DNA from: an uncultured Verrucomicrobiota bacterium
Lineage (GTDB): Bacteria; Auribacterota; JABMQX01
DNA length: 64,000 bases
Assembly: GCA_964640185.1 (NCBI GenBank)
Contig: CAZXGF010000005.1
Location: 1-64,000, forward strand
Reading direction: 5' to 3'
Part shown: piece after piece, positions 3,286 through 58,750 of the stretch
How positions within the stretch are numbered: the stretch's first letter is position 1
Layout of the letters: each line of letters begins with the position of its first letter
The notes under the pieces: generated by a model
Seen by the model: the letters and a program-made list of their open reading frames with translations, nothing else
The model's database searches: none
Told to the model about the DNA's origin: nothing
Program-made: the position numbers and the translations under genes

Positions 3286-3939
3286 TCACTTCAACCCTGG
3301 ATCCCAAATAATCGTGGGCTTTTCTTGCTTTGCGTCCGACTTAACGTGCTTCTGTGAGAACCATTTCACGTGCCAGTCGAGGAAAAGGATGTTTCCACCC
3401 CCTTGGTGTCTCTTGGCGAAATTCTCCGTTTTCCCCTTGAACTTTATCTGCTCCCCTTTGGTCTCACCGTCGAAAATGCAGACGGTGGCTGCGGGTTTCG
3501 GAATCGTGTCTATGTTGCGGAAGGGAAAGTTGCGAGGGTCCTCGGATTCCTCCAGCTTGCTGTTCATTCGGTACGATTCCTGCCGGGTCTTCTTACTTTT
3601 CCTGACACCGGGGCACAGCTTGACTTCGTTTATCTCTACGTCCTCAAGACCTCGGGTCTCGAGGTAGGGGTCTATAACGTAGTACCAACACCTGACTTCC
3701 TTCGGGGGATTGTCCTGGGCGTCATCCTCGTGTGGCAAAAGGCCGTCAAAATCGTTGGTGTACTGCAGCAAGGCAAGGCCGATCTGATGCAGGTTGTTCA
3801 GGCAGTTGGCGGTGCGGGCCTTTTCCCGAGCGGAGTGCATGGCGGGCAGGATAATGGCCGCCAGCACGCCGATGATGGCTATCACCACCAGCAGCTCGAT
3901 GAGCGTGAAACCTCTGTTTGCGAGCGTCATGCGTTTCAC
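3286..3939 (-). CDS. DUF1559 (H-X9-DG) family protein with a prepilin-type N-terminal cleavage/methylation domain (type II secretion pseudopilin-like)
   Basis: N-terminal [24 protein letters not shown] is the type IV pilin signal. C-terminal [14 protein letters not shown] matches the H-X9-DG motif. Confidence 0.8.
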
Positions 3940-4459
3940 TTTACATCACCCCCTTTGTCGCCTGAAGAACCGACGGCGCATAAGAACAACCACGATATAT
4001 CTGCAAACGCTGGTCTGCCGGACACCAAAGTTGGCATGGGCTACCAACAAACCCTGCGGCTGTCCCCTTCGGGCAGCCGGCTTCAAGTGATCCGGTCAGG
4101 CCGAGCCTAAGCTCCTTCCCGTCAAAGCCGCCGTTTTTACGGTCAATCGGGTAAGCCCATGTATTACTGCAACCGCAGCCCCACGGGGACTCACAGAGAG
4201 TTCGCCCTGGCAAGACTCTTATTTCACGCCACTAAATATAATAGCACCATTTGCCTCAGATTCAAGGCTTTTTTTGGGTAGCATACAGCGCTGTCCACTG
4301 CCCAGCGTGCAGCAAGATATGTACCACTGAGCCAAAGTGAGGAATTTTGCGCAATATCCGCTCTCTCGGCAACATGTTTCCGCGGGGAGCGACTCGCCCT
4401 CGGGCTTCCCGTCTGCCCTGGCATCCTGCTTCGTTTCCGCAAGCGGCGGGCGAGGACAT

Positions 4460-5587
4460 CTACCATCGCATCTTCCTGGTTCGGGCGCCGGGAAAATAGT
4501 ATTGAAGGATAGACTTGAACGATTTGCCGCGTTTGGCGAGAACTTTTGCCCCCCTCTGACACATGCCAACGCCGTGTCCCCAACCGCGTCCGGCGAAGGT
4601 GACGTACCCGTCTTTGGCTTCGATATTGAAGAAACCGCTTTTGATTACGCTCGGCCCCATTGTCATTCGGAAGCGATTGATCTTTATGACCTTATCGCCA
4701 TCTTGAGACTTGATTTTCAGGGCCGTGACCCTGCCGCCGGAAGCGCTCCTGCGATGGACGGCGATGGAGCGGGCGCCGGATATGCCCGCCCGGCGAAGCT
4801 TCCTTCGCAGCTCCTCGAAGCTCATGCGGGCTCGCCAGCGGAAGCCAGGTTCCTCACGGCAAAAGGGACATCGAACGGGCGGCGGAAACCGGCCTTCCGT
4901 CTGCCAGACGTTGGAGGCGTACTCGGTGAAGCCGCCGCAGCACGTGGAGAAGTAGGATAGAAGGAGTTTCCCCTTATAGAATAGAACTGTGTTTCTGGTG
5001 GCATCCACGGCTTTGTCGGTTCGTTGGTCCCGCCTATTCGGGTCATAGACCTGGGCGCTGGAAGAAATATCGAAATCCCTGTCCTTGTTGCGGAGGGCGT
5101 GAGACAGCACGAATGACCGCGAGACGACCGCCTGAGCTTCGAGCGCCTCCTGAGGCCATTCCGGCGGCATCTCGGAAGGAACAACGGCTTTCAGATAGGC
5201 GTCGAGGTCAACGACGTTGACCGCGAGGAGGCCCCCTCTTTTGCGGAGGATTCTGAGGCTTCCCGGATAGGCTTTTCCTCTGAGGGATATTTGGTTGGAG
5301 GCGCTTCTGACGCGGAGGTCCTGGACGGCGTATGGAGTTCCTGCGATGTTCAGACCTCTGGGGGCGAGGCGGAGGATTACGGGTTTGCCCGGCCTTGAGG
5401 TGGATAGCACCCTCCCGGAGCGCGTCTCTTTAACCGTCAGGACGTCCCCCGAGGAAAGGGTGACGGCATTCGCTCCCTGTAGCAAGGCGACGCGAACGGC
5501 TCGGCGACTCAGCGGCTTCTCCGTGGGAACGCATCCACTGGCGAGCAACATCAGCAGGATGATAACAAGGAGAGTCTTTTTGTGCAT
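4460..5587 (-). CDS. SpoIID/LytB domain protein (lytic transglycosylase/amidase enhancer family), lipoprotein-type signal
   Basis: FSTCCGGFTE and GRGWGHGVGMCQRGA...YYFPG signatures. Signal peptide ending ASGC. RBS GGAGG upstream of the ATG. Confidence 0.8.
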   Translation of the reverse strand: MHKKTLLVIILLMLLASGCVPTEKPLSRRAVRVALLQGANAVTLSSGDVLTVKETRSGRVLSTSRPGKPVILRLAPRGLNIAGTPYAVQDLRVRSASNQISLRGKAYPGSLRILRKRGGLLAVNVVDLDAYLKAVVPSEMPPEWPQEALEAQAVVSRSFVLSHALRNKDRDFDISSSAQVYDPNRRDQRTDKAVDATRNTVLFYKGKLLLSYFSTCCGGFTEYASNVWQTEGRFPPPVRCPFCREEPGFRWRARMSFEELRRKLRRAGISGARSIAVHRRSASGGRVTALKIKSQDGDKVIKINRFRMTMGPSVIKSGFFNIEAKDGYVTFAGRGWGHGVGMCQRGAKVLAKRGKSFKSILQYYFPGARTRKMRW

Positions 5588-9961: not shown

Positions 9962-11326
9962 ATGGACAAAAGGACCAAGTTCACTCTCGATGAGGAAGAA
10001 ATACCGGAGCGCTGGTACAACATCCAGGCAGATTTGCCCGAGCCGCTTCCGCCCGTTTTGCATCCTGGTACAGGAAAGCCAGTGGGCCCTGCTGATTTGG
10101 CTCCTCTATTTCCTATGGAACTTATCAAACAGGAAGTGAGCACCGAGCGCTGGATAGAAATCCCCGACGAAGTCCGAGATATCTATCGTTTGTGGAGGCC
10201 GACGACGCTGTTTCGGGCCCACAGATTGGAGAAATTCCTCGATACGCCGGCCAAGATTTTCTACAAGTACGAGGGGTCAAGTCCCCCCGGAAGTCACAAG
10301 CCCAACACCGCTGTGGCTCAAGCCTATTATAACAAGCAAGAGGGCATTAAGCGTATCACGACGGAGACCGGAGCCGGGCAGTGGGGAAGTGCTCTATCTT
10401 TTGGAGGCGCCTGTTTCGGTCTTGAGATAAAGGTGTACATGGTCGCCATTAGCTACCACCAGAAGCCGTACCGTCGGGTGATGATGCAGACCTGGGGCGC
10501 AAACTGCATACCGAGCCCGAGTCCCGAGACGAAGGCAGGGCGAGCCATGTTAGAGAAGTGGCCCGATTGCCCCGGCAGCCTCGGATTGGCTATCAGCGAG
10601 GCGGTAGAGGACGCTGTGTCTCGTGATGACACCCATTATGCGTTAGGCAGTGTGCTGAACCACGTTCTTCTCCATCAAACTGTGAACGGCTTGGAGGCAA
10701 AAAAGCTGATGGAGAAGGCGGGCGTTTACCCGGATATTATCGTTGGCTGCATCGGCGGTGGCTCAAACTTCGCCGGGCTGTTCTTGCCCTTCGTCAAGGA
10801 TAAAATTGACGGGACAAAGCCGGACCTGCGCATCATCAACGTAGAGCCTATGTCTGCTCCCACAATGACCAAGGGACCTTATGCCTATGACTTTGGCGAT
10901 TCGGTTGGGCTTACGCCTCTCCTCAAGATGTACACATTAGGGCATGGCTTTATCCCACCGCCGATTCACGCTGGTGGCTTGCGCTATCACGGGATGGCGC
11001 CTATTATCTGCCACCTGCACAAGCTGGGTTTTGTCGAAGCCAGAGCCGAGCATCAGCTCGCTACTTTTGAAGCCGGGGTAACATTTGCCCGAACCGAAGG
11101 CATCATCAGCGCCCCCGAACCAAACCATTGCCTCAAGGTAGCCATTGATGAAGCGCTGAAGTGCAAGGAATCCGGTGAGGCAAAGACTATCCTCATAGCT
11201 CACAGCGGACATGGGCATGTGGATATGGCTGCTTATGATGCCTACTTCGCCGGCGAACTGAAGGATTATGCGTATCCGAAAGAGAAGATAGAGGAGGCCC
11301 TGGCAAAACTGCCTGAGATACCTTGA
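9962..11326 (+). CDS. TrpB-like pyridoxal-phosphate-dependent enzyme (tryptophan synthase beta chain-like, TrpB2 class)
   Basis: 454 aa with TrpB2-type N-terminal extension. HKPNTA (PLP lysine region) and GGGSN motifs. Confidence 0.85.
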
Positions 11327-11658
11327 CCGGGAGAAGGTTAAAGAGGCTGTGAAGGAACTCCCTGAGGTGAGCGTCTGAGGATACAGTAGATATGTGCAAG
11401 CAGGTTTGAGTTCTCTCCGGCGCATAACCGATCGCCTGAAGGATTGCCCAAGTCCCAAAGAGTGTCCAGGGGGTACCATTCTTGAAGATTGCGGCGTTTT
11501 TTGGCGTAAAGATTGGTGCTGGACCGGCAGTTGCGCCTCGATGAGCTTGGCACGAACCGGAAGACGATTCGCATGGCCTTTGGGGTCAACAGGGTTCCGG
11601 ATGGACTGGGGTCAGGTTTCTGCGAGCGATACTGTAGCTTGGAGGATGTCGGATTTCT

Positions 11659-11847
11659 GTGACGATTGCGAAGCAGCAAGTTCTTGAGCTGATAAGAGAG
11701 CTACCGCAGGAAGTTGATATAGACGAGCTTATTCATCGGCTATATCTCCGGCAGAAGCTCGAGGCAGCCGAGAAAGATGTTCGTAAAGGCCGGCTCATCT
11801 CGCATGGGTAGGTGGTCGAGGAGACCGCCAAGTGGTTCCAGAAATAG
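11659..11847 (+). pseudogene. Antitoxin (addiction-module component paired with RelE/ParE toxins) interrupted by an in-frame TAG at 11809-11811
   Basis: GTG-initiated VTIAKQQVLELIRELPQEVDIDELIHRLYLRQKLEAAEKDVRKGRLISHG*VVEETAKWFQK*. The family is expected to read straight through (...SHEEV...KWF..). Confidence 0.5.
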
Positions 11848-12133
11848 TATGGACGCAGCGAGCACTAAACGACCTGCGCGACATTTATCGGTTATAGCCA
11901 AAGATTCCAAGCGATACGCCCAGATGCAGGTGGAGAAGGTTCAAGAGGCGGTGTCAAAGCTTGCCACTTTTCCATTGATGGTTTCCCGGGTGCCTGAGTT
12001 TCCCGACTTGCCATACCGCCAGATAGTGGTTGGTGACTACCGTGTTATCTACAGGTTCGACGACAAACACAATCGAATACTGGTCGCATCGGTAGTGCAT
12101 GGACGGCGGCTCCTGAAGGAGCCATCTGACTGA
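11832..12133 (+). pseudogene. RelE/ParE-family toxin with a frameshift near 11892 (T-run)
   Basis: N-terminal frame VVPEIVWTQRALNDLRDIYR stops at TAG 11895. The downstream frame continues (V)IAKDSKRYAQ...YRVIYRFDDKHNRILVASVVHGRRL, a typical ParE C-terminus. One extra T in cggTTatag would restore a single ORF. Confidence 0.55.
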
Positions 12134-12338
12134 CGCAGCAAATGTAAGCCCGCAATAGGCAGATGACAACATGGAGGCGGTTTCGTGTTGCCCAGCCCAA
12201 TGCGCCGGGCGCGAACTTCTTTCGCGCCGCAAGTTGTTTGCCCCGGCGCGCGGAAGGTAACCGCGAGATATGACGGGAGGAAATGGAGGCGGCGTCCTCC
12301 CGTCGCTGTTTGACGTTGGAACGTCAGTCCGGAGCAGA

Positions 12339-13610
12339 ATGGCAATAGCGATTAGGAAAGCGGTTCTGATAATCGCGGGATGGGGCATCGGGATGTCTCC
12401 GCTGGCCTCGGCGTGGGGCGCCGTCCTCGATTTCGATGACCTCGCCGGTAAACCTGTCCCGGACGACTACGGCGGATTGAACTGGGTTGATACTCACCTC
12501 CTCGAGAATAAGTGGATAGTTGACGCTCACTATCTACCCCAATTCGCGACTCCATGCACCTTGTTCGACGTGGGGGAGACGCCCGTGGAGGTGACCATCT
12601 CTTCGGCGACTCCCTTTGACTTCATCAGCATCCAGTTTGCGGGCGTTCCGGGAGATACTGTCCGGCTGTTCGGGGATGGACCCGGAGAGGAACGCTACGG
12701 AGTTGACTATTACTCCGGAACCATCGAGCTCGACGGCAGCACTCCGGCTACTTATGAGGAACTCTGGCTGGAAATAACCGAGCTGACGATTTATTTCGAT
12801 TCGCTCTTCCCCGGCTCCATTTTCATAGACAATCTCACGTTTCAGCCGTCGCCCCGTCTGGCGACGATCTTCAGGGAGGATTTCGACGCCTTCACCAGCA
12901 ATGAGAATCTGACGGGCGCCGGGTGGGAGAGGCAGCACGGGCAATACATTCCTGAGGATGGCGGAAGTTGGCACATTGAGCGAGGGCCTCTCGGAAGCGA
13001 GGGTGTGTCCGGCACGTACGTCATTTCCAGCAGCGCCGCGGAGGGAGAGCTCCTGCCGCTCCAAGTCCTTGACGAGCGTTTGCTCTCGCCTGAGATAGAT
13101 TGCACGAACTTCACAGACGTTCACCTGCAATTCCGGCACAACCTCAAGATAGACCGCGGCAACGATTCTCGGGAACTTTTCAACGTCCACGTCAGCACAG
13201 CTCCCGGATACGACAACTGGCAATCCAACCGCGTCCCCTTCTGGAGCTGGGAAAACTTTGACTCGGTTTACCCGCAGGCGATAGACATTTCGCAGTTCGC
13301 TGACGGCAAGAAGATAAAGATTCGCTGGCGCTACTGGGCCGATTTCGACTATTGGTGGGCGATTGATGAGGTCAGGGTCATCGGCCGCCCGAAGAAGCTG
13401 GATATCACCGACCTTCAGGTCAACGCCGCCACAAGAGAGGTGTCCTTAGCCTGGGATGCTCCCGACGGCGTTTTCAGCATAGAAGCGAGCAGTGACGCCA
13501 CCTTCTCCACCGCCACGGAGCGAGCAACGGGAATCACTGAAAAACAATGGACCGGCGCCGATCCGGGCGTGTCGGATGGTAAACGGTTTTACAAAGTGCG
13601 AATGGATTGA
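12339..13610 (+). CDS. Secreted hypothetical protein with a C-terminal domain of about 65 aa ending KRFYKVRMD
   Basis: Signal peptide MAIAIRKAVLIIAGWGIGMSPLASAWG. No recognised catalytic domain. The C-terminal domain is shared with two other proteins in the window. Confidence 0.55.
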   Translation: MAIAIRKAVLIIAGWGIGMSPLASAWGAVLDFDDLAGKPVPDDYGGLNWVDTHLLENKWIVDAHYLPQFATPCTLFDVGETPVEVTISSATPFDFISIQFAGVPGDTVRLFGDGPGEERYGVDYYSGTIELDGSTPATYEELWLEITELTIYFDSLFPGSIFIDNLTFQPSPRLATIFREDFDAFTSNENLTGAGWERQHGQYIPEDGGSWHIERGPLGSEGVSGTYVISSSAAEGELLPLQVLDERLLSPEIDCTNFTDVHLQFRHNLKIDRGNDSRELFNVHVSTAPGYDNWQSNRVPFWSWENFDSVYPQAIDISQFADGKKIKIRWRYWADFDYWWAIDEVRVIGRPKKLDITDLQVNAATREVSLAWDAPDGVFSIEASSDATFSTATERATGITEKQWTGADPGVSDGKRFYKVRMD

Positions 13611-13615
13611 GTCCC

Positions 13616-15190
13616 ATGAGGAAAGTTGAGAGAGCTCTCATTAGCGTTTCGAATAAGGAGGGGATTGTCGAATTCGCCCGGCAGCTCAAGGACATGAGCA
13701 TTGAAATCATCTCCACCGGCGGAACAGCGAAGTTGTTGCGGGAATCCGACATCCCGGTGACAAAGGTCTCCGACCTCACCGGTACTCCGGAAATGCTCGA
13801 CGGCAGAGTCAAAACGCTCCATCCGAAGATTCATGGGGCGCTTCTCGCTCTGCGGGACAATCCCCTTCATCGCAGAGAAATGGAGGAGCACGGTATCAAG
13901 CCCATTGACCTCGTGGTCGTCAATCTCTATCCCTTCGAGCAGACGGTCTCGCAGGAGGATGTGACGCTGGAACAAGCCATCGAGAACATTGACATCGGCG
14001 GGCCATCCATGATTCGATCCGCCGCCAAGAACTACCAGGACGTGGCGGTCGTGGTGGACCCCGCCCGGTATGCCGACGTGCTTCAGAACCTTCGGGCGAA
14101 CGACGGCGCCATATCCAGTGAGCTGCGCATGGCCCTCGCGGCGGAAGCCTTCGAGAGGACCGCATACTACGATTCCATTATTTTCACCTTTCTCGCCTCC
14201 CTCCAAAAAAAGAGAGAGGTGACCGCCGTCAGCAAGCTTACCCTCGAGTACGCAAAAGTCATGGACCTTCGCTACGGCGAGAACCCTCACCAGCGAGCGG
14301 CTCTCTACCGCGAAAAGATTTTCAGTGAGCCGTGCGTTCCGGGGGCGGAATTGCTCCACGGCAAGGAGCTTTCGTTCAACAACATTCTCGACCTGGACTC
14401 CGCCTGCGAGACCGTGAAGGAATTCGCCCAGCCAGCGGCTGTCGTCATCAAGCACACCAACCCCTGCGGGGTGGCTGTCGGCTCTTGGATATTCGAGGCG
14501 TACAAGAAAGCGAGGGCGACCGACCCGGTTTCCGCTTTCGGGAGCGTCGTCGCCTTTAACAAAAGCATAGACCTCCAGACTGCCGAGGAGTTGAACAAGA
14601 CCTTCATCGAAGCGATTCTCGCCCCCGGGTTCAACCATGATGCGCTGGACGTCCTGAAGAAGAAAACGAAGCGGCGGTTAGTGCTCCTGGAGGGATTGGA
14701 GACCTGGCGGATGGTGGGAGGAACGGCTTTCGCGTCCCGCGACCTCCGCAAGATCGTCGGCGGCGTGCTCGTCCAGGACCGCGACCTTCTGACGATTTCC
14801 GACAAGGACCTTCGCTGCGTGACCGAGCGGGAACCCACGGAGGAGGAGCTCAAAGCGTTGCTATTCGCCTGGAAGGTCGTCAAGCACGTCAAATCCAACG
14901 CCATCATTTACACCAACGCCATCGAGACGCTGGCAATCGGCGCCGGGCAGATGAGCCGGGTTGACTCCTCTCGGATCGCTGTCATGAAAGCACAGAAGTC
15001 GCTGAAAGGGAGTGTGGTTGCCTCCGACGCCTTTTTCCCCTTCCGGGACGGTGTGGATGCGGCGGTGGAAGCGGGAGCTACGGCGATCATTCAGCCGGGA
15101 GGCTCGGTCAGGGACGAGGAATCCATCACCGCCTGCAACGAGCACGACGTCGCCATGGTCTTCACCGGCATCCGCCACTTCAGGCACTGA
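13616..15190 (+). CDS. purH: Bifunctional AICAR transformylase / IMP cyclohydrolase PurH
   Basis: N-terminal [16 protein letters not shown]...STGGTAK (MGS-like domain) followed by the AICARFT domain. The start could be TTG 13607 or ATG 13616. Confidence 0.95.
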
Positions 15191-15385
15191 TGGTTCGAAC
15201 GCGCTTAGGATTTGGGGCATTATACAGAAACCGCATAAGGGGGTCAGAAAAGCCGGGGCAGGCGGGCCAACGGCAGGGAGAGGCCTGGCTGGGAGCCGGG
15301 TCTGTCGCCTTATGACGCGAATCAGGCGGCCAAAGGTGTCATGAGGAAGCCATATAGACCGTAGTTCCATATGGAGAAATAAGAG

Positions 15386-16174
15386 ATGACACTCGTGCTC
15401 TCCGAAATATCGCACAGAGGCGTCGCAATGGCCGCGGATTCAGCGGTCACCTGCGGTTCAGGGCGTGTCTATGTCGGAGCGCAGAAGCTCCAGGCCGTGC
15501 CTCAAATCGGCGCTGGCATGTCAGTCTGGGGACTGGGATCCATCGGAGAAGAGGACACTGACGTATGGCTCGAAAGGTTCATCCAGACCGAAGTCAAACC
15601 GACCATGACTCTATGGAAGGCTGCTGAGCGTCTCGCAGATGAACTCAACAGTGCGTTCGGGGGCGTGGCACCGGGCCGCATGGGAATCCATGTGTGCGGA
15701 TTCGACGAACGCCAAGGTTTTCGCGGCCCGGCGCTGTATCACGTGCACAACGGCCATTACAAGGTTCAGGTAGACGACGGCAAGTTCGTCAGGATCCCGG
15801 ACGAAGACCCTCCCATCAGAGAATTTCGGGCTCATCATGATATACCACCGCAAGCTTGGTCTCGTGAGCGGACACCACAAGGGCGCCGGAACGGCGACAT
15901 CTCCGTCTTCGCATGGACGAACCAGTATCTGTCTCGCTTCCTCGACGAGTTCCAAGCAGGCACCGAGTTCCGATTTCCATACCCGGACAGCCTCGAATCC
16001 CGGGGCGAGTACCTACGGTTCCTGGTCAACATGACAATCGAGCTGTATCGGCTCAGCAATGCCAGGCCCAGGGTTCTTCGCCAGCCGGCCACGCTGGGTG
16101 ATGCGAGCATCGGCGGGCCTGTGACGGTCTTAACCATTTCAGGTCAAGGCATCCAGGATTTCTACGCGAAATAG
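15386..16174 (+). CDS. Proteasome-family Ntn hydrolase (HslV / 20S beta-like), divergent, 262 aa
   Basis: MTLVLSEISHRGVAMAADSAVTCGSGRVYVGAQKLQAV aligns with HslV [34 protein letters not shown] (Thr1 nucleophile, the Asp17-equivalent Asp, Lys33 region). AGMSVWGLGSIGE corresponds to AGFAGGTADA. The C-terminal IGGPVTVLTISGQG resembles the 20S beta GG.v.v..i..G motif. Good RBS. Confidence 0.65.
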   Translation: MTLVLSEISHRGVAMAADSAVTCGSGRVYVGAQKLQAVPQIGAGMSVWGLGSIGEEDTDVWLERFIQTEVKPTMTLWKAAERLADELNSAFGGVAPGRMGIHVCGFDERQGFRGPALYHVHNGHYKVQVDDGKFVRIPDEDPPIREFRAHHDIPPQAWSRERTPQGRRNGDISVFAWTNQYLSRFLDEFQAGTEFRFPYPDSLESRGEYLRFLVNMTIELYRLSNARPRVLRQPATLGDASIGGPVTVLTISGQGIQDFYAK

Positions 16175-16265
16175 CAGCAAAGCAAGGAGAGCGTGCGACG
16201 AGAGGAGCGGCGCCACGCCTTAGAGCGCCTCGACCGTGTCGTTCCGCTGAAACGAGGATACCAGG

Positions 16266-16898
16266 ATGCAGGCTCTCATAGCCGTAATCACAGCACTGAC
16301 AATAGTGATCGCGGTGATGAACATACTCGGTGGAGTGGTCTCCGGTATCTGGCTTGCAATTCTTGGCCAGTGGAACGCCGTTGGTATTGGAATTGCATGC
16401 TTTCTTGCGTCCGGCGTGGCGATCCGCTTCGCACTGATGCCCTCCCTCCTTCTCGCGGGACCTGCTGTGTATTGCGCTGAAAAGGGGAATAGGACGGGGG
16501 CGGTCTTTTTCGCATTCCTCAACAGCGTTTACAGCATGGGCCTCGTTACGCTCTGGTGCGTCGGGGTTCTGTACTTTTTCTTCAGAATGGCAGACAACCG
16601 TTCCGTGATACCAATCTTACTTTGGTCATATGGCGTAGCCACAGAACCTTGGGCTTGGCTTGCCATGAAGGACCAGCAGGCCGGGGGTAATGAGTATTCA
16701 CTATTCTCGACCTTTCTTGCACAGGTGGCCTACCTTCTGGCAATCATCATGATCGCGCTCGCGCGCGCGGCTCTCCGGCCGGTTGTCATAACGTTCAGTG
16801 CAATCATGGGGGTTGGCATGATCTTCCAGTTGGTGGTCGCCTTTTCTGGGGACAACGCCATTAGAGCAGAATATTCGTCCTTTGAGGATGCAGAGTGA
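16266..16898 (+). CDS. Hypothetical polytopic membrane protein (about 5-6 TM)
   Basis: Hydrophobic segments throughout. Follows the Ntn-hydrolase gene on the same strand. Confidence 0.55.
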   Translation: MQALIAVITALTIVIAVMNILGGVVSGIWLAILGQWNAVGIGIACFLASGVAIRFALMPSLLLAGPAVYCAEKGNRTGAVFFAFLNSVYSMGLVTLWCVGVLYFFFRMADNRSVIPILLWSYGVATEPWAWLAMKDQQAGGNEYSLFSTFLAQVAYLLAIIMIALARAALRPVVITFSAIMGVGMIFQLVVAFSGDNAIRAEYSSFEDAE

Positions 16899-17242
16899 AA
16901 CGAATCTGGATTCCACAATTGATCGCGACTCTCACGCTCCTTTGGGCGCTTAACCCGCGGAACCCATACGCGTACTACATCCTGCTGCGGTGGATCTGCT
17001 GTGCGGCTTTCGCTTATGTCGGCGTCCAAGCTCTTGCCCATCACAAGGAGGGATGGGCTTGGGTTCTCGGGGTGATGGCTGTGGTCTACAACCCGATCAT
17101 CCGAGTTCATCTCACTCGGGAGATCTGGTCGGTGGTCAACCTCATCACAATCGCCATCGCAGTGGCATCAATATTCGTTTTGAAGGTTAAGACGCAAGAC
17201 AAAGAGGACAAGCCGAATAACGAGCTCCGCCGGACGCAGTAA
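16895..17242 (+). CDS. Small hypothetical membrane protein (3-4 TM, YYILLRWICCAAFAY motif)
   Basis: Start overlaps the previous stop (ATGA coupling). Hydrophobic. Confidence 0.55.
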   Translation: MKRIWIPQLIATLTLLWALNPRNPYAYYILLRWICCAAFAYVGVQALAHHKEGWAWVLGVMAVVYNPIIRVHLTREIWSVVNLITIAIAVASIFVLKVKTQDKEDKPNNELRRTQ

Positions 17243-17347
17243 GAGCGCACCACGCCCCCGGGGGCGCTGCTCCGGAGCCCGGCTTGGCAGGGCCCAGAAC
17301 CGGACAGCAACAACAGGGAGTTCGTCGCAGCAAGGGGAGGGATAGCA

Positions 17348-17536
17348 ATGAGCGTCAAATTGTTCTGCCCGAAGGGGCATGAGGTCGAGGAAGTTGAGAT
17401 CAAACTCGGGTTTATCGAGATGCCCGAAGACGTCAAGTCCCACAGTCAAGCTGTCATACGAATTGCGGCAAACTGTCCAACGTGCCAAACCGAGTATAAA
17501 ATGGAACTGATGCCAAGCGAGTGGGACTGGATGTAG
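17348..17536 (+). CDS. Zinc-ribbon small protein (CPKGH...CPTCQ)
   Basis: Two CxxC/CxxxH pairs about 35 aa apart. GGAGG RBS 8 nt upstream. Confidence 0.5.
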   Translation: MSVKLFCPKGHEVEEVEIKLGFIEMPEDVKSHSQAVIRIAANCPTCQTEYKMELMPSEWDWM

Positions 17537-17723
17537 CATTCAAAGTCCCCCGCACTGGCTCCGAGGGCCGCACCGTAATGCTAACGCGCCGCTGAAGGGA
17601 ACCGCATAGGAGCCGCTGGAAAGCGCGGCCGGAGCTGACGTTTGGGGCCGCAAGAACAGAAAACGGCCAGGGGCTGGTGGGGATCGCTAAAGCCCCCGAC
17701 TCAGAAGCCCGGCTGAAGCTTGC

Positions 17724-18767
17724 TTAAAGAGGTAGATCCCGGCTCGGCGCGCGGTCCGCTTTTGCGGCGTAAATAGAGAATAGCATTCGAGCGAGGCGGG
17801 AAGAGAGCCCCTCCTTCGCGTAGATAATTGCTGCGCCGGGATCAAAACCGACGCCCTCAAGAATCCTGGCAAGGCTTGCTCTGTATGCGGCCCTGGTCGA
17901 CAAGCGCATTCTTGCCTCTATCATGTTGGACTCAAGGCCACATATGACCAGAAAAGGGTCTTGCCTGACCTTGCCAGCCATGCGTCTCATGTCCCGGGGC
18001 CGGCCCCTGTGGACGCCGAAGCACGCGTCGGCCTCGTCCCAGCCCGGACCGTGGAATTGCACCCATCCTCCGGCTCCCCGAGGGCCCGTCCAAGCACCCG
18101 CTGCCCCGGGCCGTTGGACCCTCAACCTGTGGGCCATGTGCGCTCGCGTCAGTTGCACCAGTCGGCCAAGGCCGATGGGCTGCCACTGTACCTCAGGCGG
18201 CCCCCATCGCGTGCCTCTTTCGTTCCGCTGTCTGAGTCCCTGGGCCATGTACTGCGAGGAGAGCATCGCCGCCAGGTCATCGCTGAGGCCTTCTAATACG
18301 TACGTCACCGCCGTCCCGGGATTAAGTCCGCCGTCCACCATTGCGCTCGCCAGATAGATGCGATAACGGGTCCTGGCGGTCGGTCGCATCGCCGCTCGCG
18401 CCATCTTGGACTCGAGGGCCATCATGGCACCGACGGGATTCTTCTGTATCTTCTTCATGACCGCGGCCTCGTCTAAAGCCTTGCCCTTGCGAACATGATA
18501 GCGCGCTCTTGTTCCACCGTAGCTCGCCCCCTTGAACTCTATCCATCCCCCGTCACCCCCTGCAGGCGGAGGTTGCGTTTCAGGGCGGCCTTCTGGGTTG
18601 CGGCTGTTCGTCCCTGCCCCTGACGCCACCTCCTGGCCCGGGCCCGTTCTCTGGGCTCTTGGACTGGTCCTGGGCTCGGGCGTCGGTCCCGCCCCAGCGG
18701 GCTCAGCGGCCAAAGACCCCCCGGCGATAGCCAGAGCGCTAACGATGACTGTACGTAGGCTTTGCAT
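17724..18767 (-). CDS. Secreted hypothetical protein built from two tandem repeats of about 110 aa
   Basis: Start taken at MQSLRTVIVSALAIAGGSLAA (signal peptide). Internal duplication: WIEFKGASYGG...YVLEGLSDDLAAML versus WVQFHGPGWDE...YAKEGLSSRLARML. Confidence 0.5.
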   Translation of the reverse strand: MQSLRTVIVSALAIAGGSLAAEPAGAGPTPEPRTSPRAQRTGPGQEVASGAGTNSRNPEGRPETQPPPAGGDGGWIEFKGASYGGTRARYHVRKGKALDEAAVMKKIQKNPVGAMMALESKMARAAMRPTARTRYRIYLASAMVDGGLNPGTAVTYVLEGLSDDLAAMLSSQYMAQGLRQRNERGTRWGPPEVQWQPIGLGRLVQLTRAHMAHRLRVQRPGAAGAWTGPRGAGGWVQFHGPGWDEADACFGVHRGRPRDMRRMAGKVRQDPFLVICGLESNMIEARMRLSTRAAYRASLARILEGVGFDPGAAIIYAKEGLSSRLARMLFSIYAAKADRAPSRDLPL

Positions 18768-19617
18768 TTTGTTCCCCTTCGCGCTTACGTCGCGCGTCCC
18801 AACACAGCTTTGCCAGATTTTCGACCACAATCGCCACACGCGGATGCTCCGGTCCGAAGGCTTTTTCCAGTATCCCGAGAGCTCGCTCGCAAAGCGGCTC
18901 CGCTTCCGCATATTTCCCCTGTGAATGATAGACCGCAGCCAGATTGTTCAGGGTGTTGGCAATGGCGGGGTGCTCTGGTCCGAGAGCCTTTTCCCTTATT
19001 GCGAGTGCCCGTTTGTTGAGCCGCTCCGCCTCGCCGTACTTGCCCTGGGAAAGGTAAATCCCCGCGAGATTGCACAGCGACTGCACAACGTCAGGATGCT
19101 CCCCTCCGAGAGCCTTTTCGCATATCCCCAAAGCTCGCCTACAAAATGTCTCAGCCTCGGCGTATCTGCACTGAAAATAGTAAAGCAGCCCCAGATTGTT
19201 CAAAGAAGTCGCAACGTCAGGATGCGCAGAGAGAAGTCTCTTTTCCCGTATCGCCAGAGCTCGCTTGTAAAGGGGTTCCGCTTCAGCATACCTGCTCTGC
19301 TCCCTGCAAACCTCTGCGAGATTGTTGAGGCAGGTCGCCACCAAAGGGTGATCCGCCCCGAGGGCTTCTTCCCAAATCGCCAGAGCTCGCTCGTAAAGCG
19401 GCTCGGCTTTCGCATATTTCCCCCGTGAATGATAAAGCGCAGCGAGATTGTTCAGGGATGTCGCGACGTTGCAATGATGGGCGTCGAACGCCCTCTCTGC
19501 AACTTCCAAACCTCTTTCTGCCACACCGGCAGCCTCTGAATATCGCCCTTCCTGATAAAGCACACGTGCCTGAGCGTTCAGCGCCTTCCACGACCTTTCA
19601 TCCTCGCAACTGGACAT
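18739..19617 (-). CDS. Tetratricopeptide (TPR_12-type) repeat protein
   Basis: Seven or more repeats of LNNLA.LY..QG+Y.EAEPLY.RALAI.EKALG.EHP.VA. Confidence 0.85.
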   Translation of the reverse strand: MSSCEDERSWKALNAQARVLYQEGRYSEAAGVAERGLEVAERAFDAHHCNVATSLNNLAALYHSRGKYAKAEPLYERALAIWEEALGADHPLVATCLNNLAEVCREQSRYAEAEPLYKRALAIREKRLLSAHPDVATSLNNLGLLYYFQCRYAEAETFCRRALGICEKALGGEHPDVVQSLCNLAGIYLSQGKYGEAERLNKRALAIREKALGPEHPAIANTLNNLAAVYHSQGKYAEAEPLCERALGILEKAFGPEHPRVAIVVENLAKLCWDARRKREGEQNAKPTYSHR

Positions 19618-20323
19618 TCTTCCGCTCCTTTCGCATTTAGAAGTTCGACGCGTTCCATCTGAGCCAGTATTTCAATCATTCGCTTACCGATCCCGAGATT
19701 CCCGAGAGACGATCGCTCCTCATTTTTCGGCGCCACAATGTCGCGCCAGAGGTGACCGTTTAGCCGACAGGTTGTGCGTCATCGAAGACTTGGCGATGGA
19801 GGCCCCAGCGGAATCGCACAACCCCTTCTTGCGGGGGTTTTCTGTCGCTTGGCTGGTTCTGCACGGACGCTCTGCGGCCAACGTGAGGCAAGCTCGTCAG
19901 AATCGCGCTGCACACTATTGCGGCCGGCGGTACGATTGTGTACACTTCGAGTATTGTCTCCAAATATCGGAGATGTTTGCTCCGTGGTTACATCGAAAGC
20001 CCGAACCACGGTTTCAGATTCAACCGGTAGGGCTGGCGGAAAACGGGAGCGTGGCTCCGGTTACACCCCCCGCTCGCCCTGTAATCCGCCGGCCTGCCGG
20101 GTCTTCTCTCCGCTTCTTCAGGGCTAATCGTGAGTTCAAACGCAAAGGCCCTTCACGGTTAAGCAAGCTTCATGCCGGGCAAACTTCTTCGGCCGTTTAG
20201 CCCTCTTGCCTCGCCAGGCTCCTGCGAAACCCAAGATGACAAGCCGACAGAAAAGCCGATAAGAATACCCCCGAGTTCTCGTTTTTCGCTCCGAATCTCC
20301 GCGATGCTGACCTGGCACGCCTA

Positions 20324-20338
20324 TTGCAATGGCCACTC
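20324..20338 (+). promoter_or_regulatory. Sigma-54 (RpoN) -24/-12 promoter, TGGCACG-N4-TTGCA
   Basis: ctGGCACgcctaTTGCAat is an exact match to the consensus spacing, about 78 bp upstream of the ATG at 20416. Confidence 0.6.
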
Positions 20339-20415
20339 TTTGGTCGGAGCTTTCGGGCTACGTGAGTTCCATCTTGTTGTGAACGAGGGTCCCTTCCTAC
20401 GGAGGAGAAGTTCTC

Positions 20416-22023
20416 ATGGATAATGTGCATTTCAGCGTTCAGACGGAGCATCCGACGGGCGGAGCGGGCGCTATCAGAAAACTCCTTTTGCAGAGCTGCC
20501 CTGTAATTGCCCTCATCGTCAGCTTGTTTTCGTTCTGCGGGGCAACGGCGAGCACGACGTGGTATGTGGACGGTTGGATTTCGCCGTCGGGTGATGGCAC
20601 ATCCTGGCTGACGGGTTTCAACACAATTCAGCAGGGCATTGACGAGGCGTCCGATGGCGACACGGTCGTTGTCGCCCCCGGCGCCTATTTCGAGAACATT
20701 CACTTCAAGGGCAAGAACATAGTCCTCCGCAGCAGGGCTCCCCACACTCCGGCATGGACCATTATTGATGGCAGCCAGGCGGGTCCCGTCGTCACCTTCT
20801 CCGGCACAGAAGACGAAACCTGCGTCCTTTCCGGCTTTACAGTCCGCAACGGGAAGGCCAAGGACGCCGAGGGCGCCGGAATTTGCGGCGGGACAAGCGA
20901 ACACCACACTCGCGCCACCATAGAGAACAACATCATCACCGCCAACTTCGGCATAGACGCCTTTGCTCGCGGCGGGGGGCTGGCTTACTGCGACGGCACG
21001 ATCGAGAACAACACGATTACCGGCAACACGCTGATTATGCCCCCGATTTTTCCGGGGCAAAACAGCGAAGGCGGTGGGCTGTACAAGTGTAACGGTCGCA
21101 TCCGGGACAATACGATTTCAGACAACACCGCCGACCCAATAGGAAAAGGCGGCGGGTTGTGCAGATGCCAGGGCAGTATCGAGAACAACACCATCTCTGG
21201 AAACTCCGCCGCGTACGGCGGCGGACTCTTCGTGTGCGGAGCCGAGATCGTGAACAACATCATCGAGGGCAACTCCTCAGATAACGAGGGCGGCGGGCTG
21301 TATAAGTGCGATGGCGCCATTCGCAGCAACTCGATTATCGGCAACTCGGCCGGCTATGGCGGGGGGCTTTCTGCCTGTGAGGGCACGGTCCTCAATAACA
21401 CCATCGTCGGGAACTGGACGACATCCCCCGACGGCGCCGGTGGCGGGCTTTACGTTTGCAGTGGTCAGATACGCAACTGCATCATCTGGGGAAATAACGC
21501 CTCGCAGTGCGAGCAACTCCTCGGTTCCAGAGATGTTGCCTATTCATGCGTAGAGGGATGGACCGGTGATGGACAAGGGAACATAGCCCTGAATCCACGC
21601 TTCGTTGATCCGGATGGTCCCGACAACGACTCAAACACGTACGACGATAACAACTATCGCCTCTCGTCGGATTCGCCATGTGTTGACGCAGGGGACAACT
21701 CGGTGCTCGACCAACCCGGGTTCGACCTCGATAGGAACTTGCGCATCGCCTTTGGCGGAGCATCGCTTACCGTGGATGTGGGAGCCTACGAGTACAATTC
21801 TGTGCCGCTCGCGGCGCCCCGCGTCGCAGTGGACGATGGCGGCGGCATCCGCCTCACCTGGGACAGCCAGCCGAACGACACCTTTACCGTCTCGTCATGC
21901 GTTGACCTCTTCACCGGCGTGTGGCTTGAGGAAGCAACAATTTCCTCCGACGGGGCAACCATCTCCTGGACGGATGCGACCCTCCTCAGCGACGCGAAAT
22001 TCTATCGCATCGAAGCAAAGTAG
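20416..22023 (+). CDS. Secreted right-handed parallel beta-helix repeat protein (pectin-lyase fold) with a C-terminal domain ending KFYRIEAK
   Basis: Repeated NNTITGN / DNTISDN / NNIIEGNS..GGGL coils. Signal peptide. RBS GGAGGAG. Confidence 0.8.
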   Translation: MDNVHFSVQTEHPTGGAGAIRKLLLQSCPVIALIVSLFSFCGATASTTWYVDGWISPSGDGTSWLTGFNTIQQGIDEASDGDTVVVAPGAYFENIHFKGKNIVLRSRAPHTPAWTIIDGSQAGPVVTFSGTEDETCVLSGFTVRNGKAKDAEGAGICGGTSEHHTRATIENNIITANFGIDAFARGGGLAYCDGTIENNTITGNTLIMPPIFPGQNSEGGGLYKCNGRIRDNTISDNTADPIGKGGGLCRCQGSIENNTISGNSAAYGGGLFVCGAEIVNNIIEGNSSDNEGGGLYKCDGAIRSNSIIGNSAGYGGGLSACEGTVLNNTIVGNWTTSPDGAGGGLYVCSGQIRNCIIWGNNASQCEQLLGSRDVAYSCVEGWTGDGQGNIALNPRFVDPDGPDNDSNTYDDNNYRLSSDSPCVDAGDNSVLDQPGFDLDRNLRIAFGGASLTVDVGAYEYNSVPLAAPRVAVDDGGGIRLTWDSQPNDTFTVSSCVDLFTGVWLEEATISSDGATISWTDATLLSDAKFYRIEAK

Positions 22024-22528: not shown

Positions 22529-22927
22529 CGGAACTGTCCTTGGACCTTGCCCGTGCCGGAATCTTGACCCCATCCCCCCACTCACCTTTACGAAAAGGAG
22601 AAAACGCCGGGCTATTCGAACTGGCCTCGAGGAATCTTTCGAGTCGTGACGCACATATCTCGCCCTTTCAGGGCTCATCATTCTTGAACGGGGGCGCTTT
22701 CTCAGGGCCTTGCCCTGAGCTTTATTAAGTCTGCCCTTACAGGGCGACCCCAAAGCAACTTCAGCCCCGAAGGGGCGCAATATTCCAGCCCAGGGCAACG
22801 CCCTGGGAAAGTCGTACGTGATGAAATACAAAAGCCCTGAAGGGGCGTGATAGGCTCATCCCCAATACACGGTTTGCTCCAGACACATGAGAGCCGACCC
22901 GCCTGCCACTGAAATGGAGCCACACCC
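22507..22927 (+). mobile_element. MITE-like element (about 420 bp) with TIRs gggtgcggctacatttgagtgg (22507-22528) and ccactgaaatggagccacaccc (22906-22927). Inverted copy of 1095-1497
   Basis: Co-linear reverse-complement similarity to 1095-1497. No transposase present. Confidence 0.7.
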
Positions 22928-25379: not shown

Positions 25380-25960
25380 TGCGTCACTTACGGGCGGCTG
25401 AGGGTGCAACCGCACGGCCCGCGGACCACGCGGAGCCGGCCTTGTACCCCCGGCATCTTGTCCCGCGTTCCGCGGGAGGGCATCCTGCGCCCGACTGGCT
25501 CCGGCTGTACCCTTCACGGCAAAAAAGCCGCCCCCACATGGCATCCCGCCGGAGGCGGGCCCCGTAGGAATCATGGGCAAGATGCCCATGCCACGGCAGC
25601 AAAGGACTCGGTTCTTCTCATCTTCCTCTCTGCGCCTCTGCCTTGTCCTATTCCTCCCTTTTTCCCTCCCCCGCCAAGGCGGGGTTTCCGCCCGAGACTG
25701 AGGGCTTACAAGGGGGGCGTGGCCGCGTTTGCGGGGCATATCGGGCACGGCCCCTGTCATTCTCGTCGTGGTCGCCACGCCGCCGCAGGCAGGGCTGCCG
25801 GGCTTTAGCCGGCGCCACCCTTAGCCACCGGCTTTAGTCGGTGGTATCGGATACGAGATTCTTCTCGTGACAGCCGGCTTCAGCCGGGCTTCTCGACCAA
25901 AGGATTCATCCGAAGTATGCCACGCAAATACGGCCGCACCCAACCAGGGCACTTGGAAAG
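25380..25960. repeat. Repeat island of hairpin modules. It ends with a 22-nt TIR-like motif (ccacgcaaatacggccgcaccc, 25920-25941) preceded by gccgggcttctcgaccaaaggattcatccgaag
   Basis: Near-identical module string at 35020-35096. The CATGGGCAAGATGCCCATG palindrome lies at about 25573. The ORFs here are almost certainly spurious. Confidence 0.7.
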
Positions 25961-34959: not shown

Positions 34960-35100
34960 GCGGGGCGCCCCCCCTTAGCCACCTGCTTCAGCTGGTGGTC
35001 ATCGGATAGGCCGTCTCCGGCGTGAGAGCCGGCTTTAGCCGGGCTTCTCGAACAAGGGATTCATCCATAACTTGCCACGGAAATACAGCCGCACCCATTT
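34960..35100. repeat. Hairpin-module repeat ending in ccacggaaatacagccgcaccc (35075-35096), in the atpD upstream region
   Basis: Near-identical to 25855-25941. Confidence 0.7.
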
Positions 35101-58139: not shown

Positions 58140-58750
58140 TCGGTCACGTATTTTTTTTGACGGGATAACAGGATGTGTGGGATTGCGGACTTCGGATTGC
58201 GGATTTCGGATTCCGCAATCCGCAATCTGCACTCCGCAATGGGCAGGGTGTATCTCACGAGCAACAACATCCTCCCTCAGGGAGCCTCAGCCCCACGATA
58301 ACCGTACCTGCTTCGACCCCGCCAGGGCGGGGGAGTGCGAAGTCTGCGACAACTTGTCAGCCAATTGCTTGTTCTTCCTGGTTTTTCAGAGTGCCCCACG
58401 GGCGTTCGGATTTACCGGATACCTGGGTGTGACTGTATTTGAGTGGTGGGGTTGGGATGAATCCTCTGGTCGAGAAGCCCGGCTGAAGCCGGCTCCAGAG
58501 AGGAAAAAGGCGCGCCCTGTGACCACCCGCTGAAGCGGGTGGCTAACGGGGATGCCAGCTAAAGCCTGGCAGAAATGAGGCTGTGCTGCGGTGTTGAACC
58601 CGAACCACGTGCCTGAGAAAGAACGGTGGAAAGAGGTCCCGGCTGCCACTGAAATATAGCCACACCCGGATACCTCACATTCCTCGAACGATCCGGTCTA
58701 TCCTGTTATCCTGTCGAAGGATTCCCTTCACCCCGCACTATACGTTACGG
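58140..58750. mobile_element. Composite MITE-like element (about 610 bp) with TIRs of the 29612 family. It carries a heptad-repeat palindrome (gattgcggatttcggattccgcaatccgcaatc), CTGAAGC hairpins and a ccactgaaatatagccacaccc motif (58644-58665)
   Basis: Left end ttcataaattcggtcacgtattttttttgacgggataacaggatgtg. Right end ggtctatcctgttatcctgtcgaagg...ctatacgttacggtacttgcgaacgc is its inverted counterpart. Confidence 0.65.

Follow-up and report, generated by a model that had tools for sequence, protein, structure and literature searches.

We describe here a gene for a 262-residue protein in a 64,000-nucleotide stretch of DNA (hereafter the window; positions 1 to 64,000 of contig CAZXGF010000005.1, assembly GCA_964640185.1) from an uncultured Verrucomicrobiota bacterium placed by GTDB in Auribacterota (JABMQX01). 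The product is a distant relative of the catalytic subunit of the proteasome, with active-site residues intact, and we refer to its open reading frame (ORF) as the hydrolase gene. It lies downstream of purH and is followed by three further genes, the TM210, DUF6804 and ZR62 genes. An earlier examination of the letters alone, which we call the original prediction, had described the four ORFs as an operon headed by a proteasome-family N-terminal nucleophile (Ntn) hydrolase; their coordinates and forward strand, including those of the 262-residue product, were confirmed.

Genes and gene arrangement at the locus

The genes and the translation signal considered below are the following.

13607-15190: purH, upstream of the hydrolase gene
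15373-15376, forward: GGAG ribosome-binding site, read from the sequence, 9 nt before the ATG of the hydrolase gene
15386-16174, forward: hydrolase gene in the ORF list, 262 residues, product beginning MTLVLS
16266-16898, forward: TM210 gene, 210-residue polytopic membrane protein; adjacent, not a conserved partner
16895-17242, forward: DUF6804 gene, 115-residue membrane protein (Pfam PF20619); adjacent, not a conserved partner
17348-17536, forward: ZR62 gene, 62-residue protein with CPKGH...CPTC; adjacent, not a conserved partner

From the hydrolase gene onward, the four genes of this one-strand block are separated by 91 nt, by a 4-nt overlap and by 105 nt. The overlap (GTGA), shared by the TM210 and DUF6804 genes, bears out the coupled layout that had been proposed for the second and third genes of the block. 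Independent gene calls yielded an identical four-gene layout on four contigs from the same population as the window. The TM210 and DUF6804 products are both hydrophobic and polytopic, as had been stated; the accompanying description of both as unannotatable fails for the 115-residue product, which matches Pfam DUF6804 (PF20619) with an E-value of 2.7e-23. Inspection of the 62-residue protein, previously described as a CxxC...CxxC zinc ribbon, showed the cysteine pattern to be CxxxH...CxxC, and zinc-ribbon models matched it at sub-threshold level only (E about 0.01). Within about 8 kb of the hydrolase gene in the window we found no gene for HslU or another AAA+ protein and none of the Anbu operon, in agreement with the original prediction. 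An Rfam scan of positions 11000-21000 returned nothing; promoter and terminator scans around the locus remained at background, and the gaps between the genes hold no terminator-like site.

Fold and active-site residues of the 262-residue protein

An AlphaFold2 model computed from 42 family sequences (predicted local distance difference test 89.5, predicted template modelling score 0.89) shows the 262-residue protein with a proteasome beta fold, that is, the four-layer alpha-beta-beta-alpha arrangement of proteasome-like (T1-type) Ntn hydrolases with core strands S1-S10 and helices H1-H4. When this model was compared with the PDB by Foldseek, 492 matches were obtained at E <= 1e-3, and the best 50 are 20S beta subunits except for one Anbu chain. 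Sequence comparisons drew on two alignments, A1 with 42 and A2 with 103 family members. Aligned by hhalign with 18 archaeal (Thermoplasmatota) beta subunits, which had been retrieved with a Thermoplasma sequence 98% identical to a database entry, the 103-member profile gave a probability of 79.9% (E = 1.4e-5) over 111 columns. The register places Thr2, Asp18, Thr22, Lys34 and Gly49 on Thr1, Glu17, Thr21, Lys33 and Gly47, respectively. Single-sequence hhalign against Thermoplasma beta reached a probability of 2%, with the same catalytic register, and against E. coli HslV gave nothing; the link emerged only when both partners entered as profiles. The alignment with HslV that had been claimed was thus not recovered by single-sequence comparison, while the assignment to proteasome-family Ntn hydrolases, and the register proposed for the catalytic residues, are supported by the model and its structural matches, by the profile-profile alignment and by conservation. 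The residues and segments concerned are encoded as follows.

15389-15391, forward: codon of Thr2, predicted N-terminal nucleophile (Thr1) after removal of Met1, from conservation and hhalign register
15437-15439, forward: codon of Asp18, equivalent of beta Asp/Glu17, aligned to Glu17 of Thermoplasma beta
15485-15487, forward: codon of Lys34, equivalent of beta Lys33, from the alignment
15530-15532, forward: codon of Gly49, equivalent of oxyanion-hole Gly47, following the family-specific Trp48, from hhalign register
15689-15742, forward: S6/S7 hairpin with family-specific His102 and His119, plus His121, from conservation and model strands
15749-15880, forward: some 40 residues (roughly 122-165) inserted compared with a canonical beta subunit, with additional beta strands
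15890-15895, forward: Asn169-Gly170, where a strand ends and helix H3 is about to start, from topology
16112-16150, forward: GGPVTVLTISGQG, residues 243-255, counterpart of beta G170-G171 and the S10/S11 hairpin

Conservation across A2 is in keeping with catalysis. The second residue is Thr in 96 of the 103 sequences and Ser in six; Asp18 is Asp in 101 and Glu in two; Lys34 is retained in 102 and Gly49 in 101; and Thr22, the counterpart of beta Thr21, is Thr in 82 and Ser in 12. Among 262 members, 213 start with Met-Thr and 17 with Met-Ser (together 230/262). This exchange of Thr for Ser, in a protein whose start coincides with its nucleophile, is the pattern expected of a propeptide-free Ntn enzyme. 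The C-terminal beta-like motif that had been pointed out is also present: GGPVTVLTISGQG lies in the region of two model strands near the C-terminus (residues 247-252 and 255-261), and its first residue, Gly243, is Gly in 81/103.

A second set of residues is peculiar to the family. Trp48 occurs in 95/103 sequences, His102 in 99/103, His119 in 95/103 and His121 in 76/103. The two strands of the S6/S7 hairpin comprise residues 99-109 and 112-121 of the model, and its register makes His102 and His119 cross-strand neighbours; from fold topology we infer for both a place at that end of the sandwich where the active site is. Asn169 (Asn in 99/103) and Gly170 (Gly in 103/103) are flanked by a strand (165-169) and a helix (173-192), a topology that makes them the probable counterpart of Ser129-Gly130. 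The insertion at roughly 122-165 is the main reason why the protein is longer than a beta subunit, and Trp61, Gly100 and Gly105 (both in S6) and Pro198 are further near-invariant residues. Together with the insertion of extra beta strands, Trp48, His102, His119 and Asn169 probably define the substrate pocket or the assembly of the protein.

Several observations weigh against describing this protein as a proteasome-type hydrolase. The link in sequence is one profile-profile alignment, covering the N-terminal half at 80% probability. Searches of PDB sequences, by phmmer with the single sequence and by hmmsearch with family profiles, returned noise only. The match to PF00227 that the original prediction had expected is missing, both at E <= 10 for the window protein and the 42 members of A1 scanned singly and, for the 103 A2 sequences, at E <= 1 among the first 25 families of a list of 30, each of these 25 being matched by one sequence. 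In the second shell, the Ser169 position is occupied by Ile242, and is Ile or Val in 103/103; in the register adopted here, an Asp166-like Asp is confined to a close subfamily and Ser129 is apparently replaced by Asn. The invariant His102 and His119 could, moreover, be signs of another chemistry or of a metal site.

The missing second-shell Ser169 and Asp166 would also suit a catalytically dead structural protein comparable to the alpha subunits of the proteasome, but this is very improbable given that Thr/Ser2, Asp18, Lys34 and Gly49 are 93-99% conserved and that the N-terminus coincides with the nucleophile in 88% of members. Only selection for catalysis would be expected to preserve the catalytic residues and the N-terminus together.

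The hydrolase gene as a one-gene unit

The hydrolase ORF is genuine and conserved. A word-indexed search with the 262-residue protein retrieved 154 homologs, nearly all of 250-265 residues and without Pfam domains, and an exhaustive profile search retrieved 1114 clusters at 50% identity with E <= 1e-3, including 523 with E <= 1e-10. Members are scattered patchily over Desulfatiglandales and other Deltaproteobacteria, Eisenbacteria, Terriglobia, Bacteroidota, Phycisphaerae, Chloroflexota, a bacterium of the candidate phyla radiation (Wolfebacteria), Bathyarchaeota and Methanoperedens; a source tag of the NCBI non-redundant database (nr) is carried by 3 of the 120 listed clusters. The protein has no match among Pfam, NCBIfam and PADLOC models, none of the four window proteins matched PADLOC-DB 2.0 at E <= 1, and no relatives of the hydrolase were found in IMG/VR, GenBank phages or PLSDB plasmids.

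In PHROGs the hydrolase has a weak N-terminal match to phrog_5990 (E = 0.002) and nothing else. The phrog_5990 proteins, phage and prophage proteins of 420-425 residues, exceed the hydrolase by 160 residues. The two have in common an N-terminal catalytic module of about 57 residues, with the pattern MT..G[IV]AMAADSA[IV]T..KL..G, and only these first 57 or so residues align (hhalign probability 96%, E = 2.4e-9). Two loci encode proteins of this longer kind (6001-7263 in L022, from Oceanobacillus indicireducens, and 5998-7275 in L021), 420-425 residues in length and matching phrog_5990 over their full length at E-values of 1e-109 to 1e-115, again with only the N-terminal module (here MT..GIAMAADSAIT..KL..G) in common with the hydrolase; they look like a longer, phage-associated branch of Ntn hydrolases that begin with Met-Thr, with no Pfam domain.

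The neighbourhood of the gene was compared over 108 loci encoding family members (88 non-redundant), 104 of them besides the four contigs identical to the window; at least 1.5 kb of downstream sequence was present in 56. The TM210, DUF6804 and ZR62 proteins were detected by tblastn in 0/104 other loci and only in the four window-identical contigs. When all ORFs of 70 residues or more were clustered all against all, no shared neighbour family was larger than the large serine recombinases of five loci. Pfam and PADLOC scans of the 148 immediately flanking proteins, a mix of housekeeping, mobile and defence genes, gave at most three members per family. Small ORFs (25-130 residues, within 700 nt) included none that recurs beside the hydrolase gene. 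Small CxxC..CxxC ORFs were present downstream in 1/43 loci and upstream in 2/50, and in 10/60 loci a downstream neighbour had two or more hydrophobic segments; both rates are at background level.

The closest relatives lead to the same result. In L112 (77% amino acid identity) nucleotide similarity to the window is restricted to 15364-16174 and in L113 (73%) to 15373-16174, with other genes on both sides of the hydrolase gene in each. A related genome without the hydrolase (L111) has purH and the gene upstream of it in common with the window at 75% nucleotide identity; this similarity stops at about the purH stop codon (window position 15186, the purH ORF ending at 15190), and a TM210 homolog is present in the opposite orientation. 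TM210 itself belongs to a widespread, uncharacterised family of at least 184 members for which no model exists, and three sampled TM210 loci contain neither the hydrolase nor DUF6804. These comparisons show the hydrolase gene to be present or absent as a one-gene unit, with no conserved neighbours. Because it travels as a single gene, the TM210, DUF6804 and ZR62 genes are chance neighbours, in a variable region that starts right after purH.

The original prediction had instead joined the hydrolase, both membrane proteins and the small Cys/His protein in an operon, with a membrane-tethered, self-compartmentalising peptidase module or a proteolytic effector of a defence or signalling system as plausible readings. 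The common strand, the short gaps, in which no terminator-like site was seen, and the identical arrangement in four contigs of one population are in its favour, but the three downstream genes recur at none of the other loci, L112 and L113 share with the window the hydrolase gene only, TM210 homologs occur without the hydrolase, neighbouring genes for membrane proteins or zinc ribbons do not exceed the background rate, and even the TM210-DUF6804 pair was not seen in the three other TM210 loci. The cassette is kept in no related genome, which is the outcome by which the original prediction had itself proposed to recognise adjacency by chance. As a conserved system the four-gene module is close to refuted; we consider such an operon scarcely credible, and the membrane-tethered peptidase falls with the unsupported cassette. 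Same-strand adjacency and a 4-nt gene overlap are here no evidence of a functional cassette.

Some features of individual loci may be recorded in addition. Only one locus (L053) has two copies of the hydrolase gene, full-length paralogs at 1599-2384 and 3933-4745, about 1.5 kb apart. In Methanoperedens (L005 and L047) the hydrolase gene is followed by an ORF for a 73-residue CxxC...CxxC zinc ribbon (6856-7077 in L005), the only such case among the 43 loci whose downstream sequence was long enough, and without detectable similarity to ZR62. TM210 homologs (P0267, P0269, P0285 and P0306) include proteins with an N-terminal zinc ribbon (PF13240 or PF13248) as well as proteins of about 333 residues. 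A 25-nt direct repeat flanking the four genes in the window (15229-15253 and 17600-17624) was considered and set aside: its copies are 72% identical, with the first 9 nt exact, and chance alone should produce about 14 such pairs in 2.7 kb. A gene for a ParE-type toxin (PF05016, E = 1.3e-10) is located at 11777-12133, upstream of the purH region.

The window also contains dispersed repeats. One, about 120-140 nt long and similar to repetitive extragenic palindromic sequences or miniature inverted-repeat transposable elements, has copies 75-81% identical at 239-331, 25795-25931 (reverse strand), 34970-35088 (reverse strand) and 58431-58570; among its GC-rich hairpins are GAAGCCCGGCTGAAGCCGGCTCC and CCACCCGCTGAAGCGGGTGG. 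At about 17690-17714, just after the 62-residue gene, the motif recurs in degenerate form, and in L112, the closest relative, the repeat is found downstream of the hydrolase gene (2420-2539). The second, of about 210 nt, occurs at 1141-1350 and 22656-22865 (reverse strand) in copies 87% identical, with an internal inverted repeat, and also in the related genome L111 (149-299).

A patchy distribution over unrelated bacterial and archaeal phyla, in a single-gene presence/absence pattern, is also what an accessory, horizontally mobile proteolytic effector or sensor of anti-phage or conflict systems might display, one located in defence islands and working with whichever system lies nearby. Consistent with this are the large serine recombinases in five loci; type I restriction-modification genes in L010/L092 and L029/L030; a relative of 58% identity in L023 (2144-8878) located between GmrSD_N and HEPN genes and DDE transposases; a KAP NTPase beside the relative in L025; a relative of 54% identity in L027 near Prok-E2_E, a ThiF-type E1 and a CHAT protease; and OLD/GajA-like ATPases and Schlafen-AlbA_2 among the neighbours. 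No PADLOC model matches the hydrolase, however, and the databases of phages, viruses and plasmids named above hold no relatives; no defence family is represented in more than two or three of the 148 neighbours; housekeeping neighbours are common (Hsp70, isocitrate dehydrogenase, aminotransferase, MreB, UbiA and Mfd); and the window copy adjoins purH. We regard a role of this kind as unlikely.

The arrangement in L027 (592-5786) comprises genes for a helix-turn-helix protein and an ImmA-like M78 peptidase, an 81-residue ORF, Prok-E2_E, the ThiF-type E1, a 363-residue protein and then the hydrolase, with the CHAT protease gene convergent and downstream of it. This arrangement suggests a link to bacterial ubiquitin-like conjugation, which was considered and not retained, the adjacency to E1 and E2 being a single instance, in L027 only.

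Relation to known proteasome homologs and predicted activity

The statement in the original prediction that no proteasome homologue had been described in such a context overlooks the survey of Fuchs, Alva and Lupas (2021; PMC8665760), who reported 22 orphan families of proteasome homologs with a patchy occurrence in bacteria and archaea: WPH, PHI, PMI-1 to 6, PHD, ACC, FC1-5, GPH, DAH, AAH, CPH, PPH, RPC and DPH. These families are divergent, uncharacterised and propeptide-free, with a conserved catalytic triad and various insertions, and were found only through iterative searches combined with inspection of active-site residues (PMC8665760). Non-canonical proteasome homologs typically have no propeptide (PMC8665760, section 3.3). 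The family described here is the same kind of object, likewise propeptide-free and patchily spread over bacteria and archaea, and has in common with the group II families (PMI, PHD) an affinity to Anbu and WPH and a mixed bacterial-archaeal spread. The insertions of the 22 families are located at S3/S4, after H2, at H3/H4 or at the C-terminus (PMC8665760), whereas, in a comparison by description only, the main insertion of the present family falls between S7 and S9. As only 3 of the 120 listed clusters have nr tags, the nr-based search of 2021 may have missed this family; these tags and the insertion site weakly favour a family outside the 22. On such a comparison of descriptions, it is a further orphan proteasome homolog, or possibly one already listed.

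With 20S beta subunits (MEROPS T1A, PF00227) the hydrolase shares the equivalents of Thr1, Asp/Glu17, Lys33, Gly47 and Thr21 in register and the C-terminal GG-strand-turn-strand motif. It differs from them in its low identity (13-21%), in the missing PF00227 match and propeptide, in having neither an alpha-subunit nor an ATPase partner, and in about 60 extra residues, mainly the beta insertion at roughly 122-165; Ser169 is replaced by Ile or Val and Ser129 probably by Asn, and Trp48, His102 and His119 are additional invariant residues. Anbu resembles the hydrolase in being propeptide-free, with a Met-Thr start, and in occurring in bacteria without an AAA+ partner. The conserved operon of Anbu also includes ATP-grasp, alpha-E and transglutaminase-like genes; none of these was found near the window hydrolase, and none is recurrent near its relatives. 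Identity between the two is 13%, and the C-terminal coiled-coil helix H5 of Anbu is not predicted in the model. HslV and BPH are compact proteins of about 175-185 residues, much shorter than the hydrolase, and HslV works with HslU, for which the hydrolase locus has no gene. On the features compared, the family stays below the gathering threshold of PF00227, is not accompanied by partner genes of the 20S, HslVU or Anbu systems, and does not display the features of connectase.

Connectase (DUF2121), in which helices H1 and H2 are missing and a lid of two helices is inserted between S3 and S4 (PMC8665760), bears on the possibility that the proteasome fold and Thr1 serve an altered chemistry here, in a connectase-like transpeptidase or ligase or in a small-molecule amidase. 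The family-specific residues, more than 92% conserved and without counterpart in classical beta subunits, and the missing Ser169 and Asp166 point in this direction, and the His102/His119/Asn169/Trp48 set might form a new pocket or metal site. The model, however, includes H1 and H2 (residues 58-69 and 76-91) and has no lid, with nothing helical inserted from residue 22 to residue 34, and the hydrolase family, unlike connectase, is not restricted to methanogens. No conserved substrate gene or small ORF adjoins the hydrolase gene, and the adjacency to purH, which might have suggested a PurO-like enzyme, is unique to the window organism. Altered chemistry of this sort is, in our estimation, quite unlikely.

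We therefore favour, with a probability of roughly 0.6, the reading of the 262-residue protein as a predicted cytoplasmic, propeptide-free, stand-alone amidohydrolase of the T1 type, from an uncharacterised family whose proteins have about 250 residues, acting through Thr1 and with no dedicated ATPase or membrane partner. In the mechanism envisaged, methionine aminopeptidase, judging from its specificity, would strip Met1 and expose Thr1, whose hydroxyl, activated via Lys34 and Asp18, would attack the amide bond while the backbone of Gly49 stabilises the oxyanion. Such an enzyme would act as an ATP-independent, unfoldase-free peptidase or amidase on peptides, on unfolded chains or on a specific protein tail. 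It may work as a monomer or homo-oligomer, because tandem paralogs are nearly absent (1/108 loci).

These results allow a tentative proposal, which we consider possible though short of probable, that the hydrolase represents an undescribed, twenty-third family of proteasome homologs, with about 1,100 clusters at 50% identity, a single-gene spread and near confinement to uncultured anaerobic bacteria and archaea. In such a family an Asn/His/His/Trp set beside Thr1 would replace the Ser129/Ser169 shell, and with the beta insertion would confer a specificity, chemistry or quaternary structure unlike those of the proteasome, HslV, Anbu, BPH and connectase. Identification of the hydrolase is worth recording in its own right, and gains weight if the family is distinct from the 22 and if the His/Asn/Trp set gives rise to a new activity or assembly. 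About 1,000 clusters of "hypothetical" proteins could be annotated as proteasome-like Ntn hydrolases. Abundant, without a model, and combining intact catalytic residues with a His/Asn/Trp set of its own, the family is a reasonable target for biochemistry, and it provides a data point on the diversification of the proteasome fold outside ATPase-coupled degradation.

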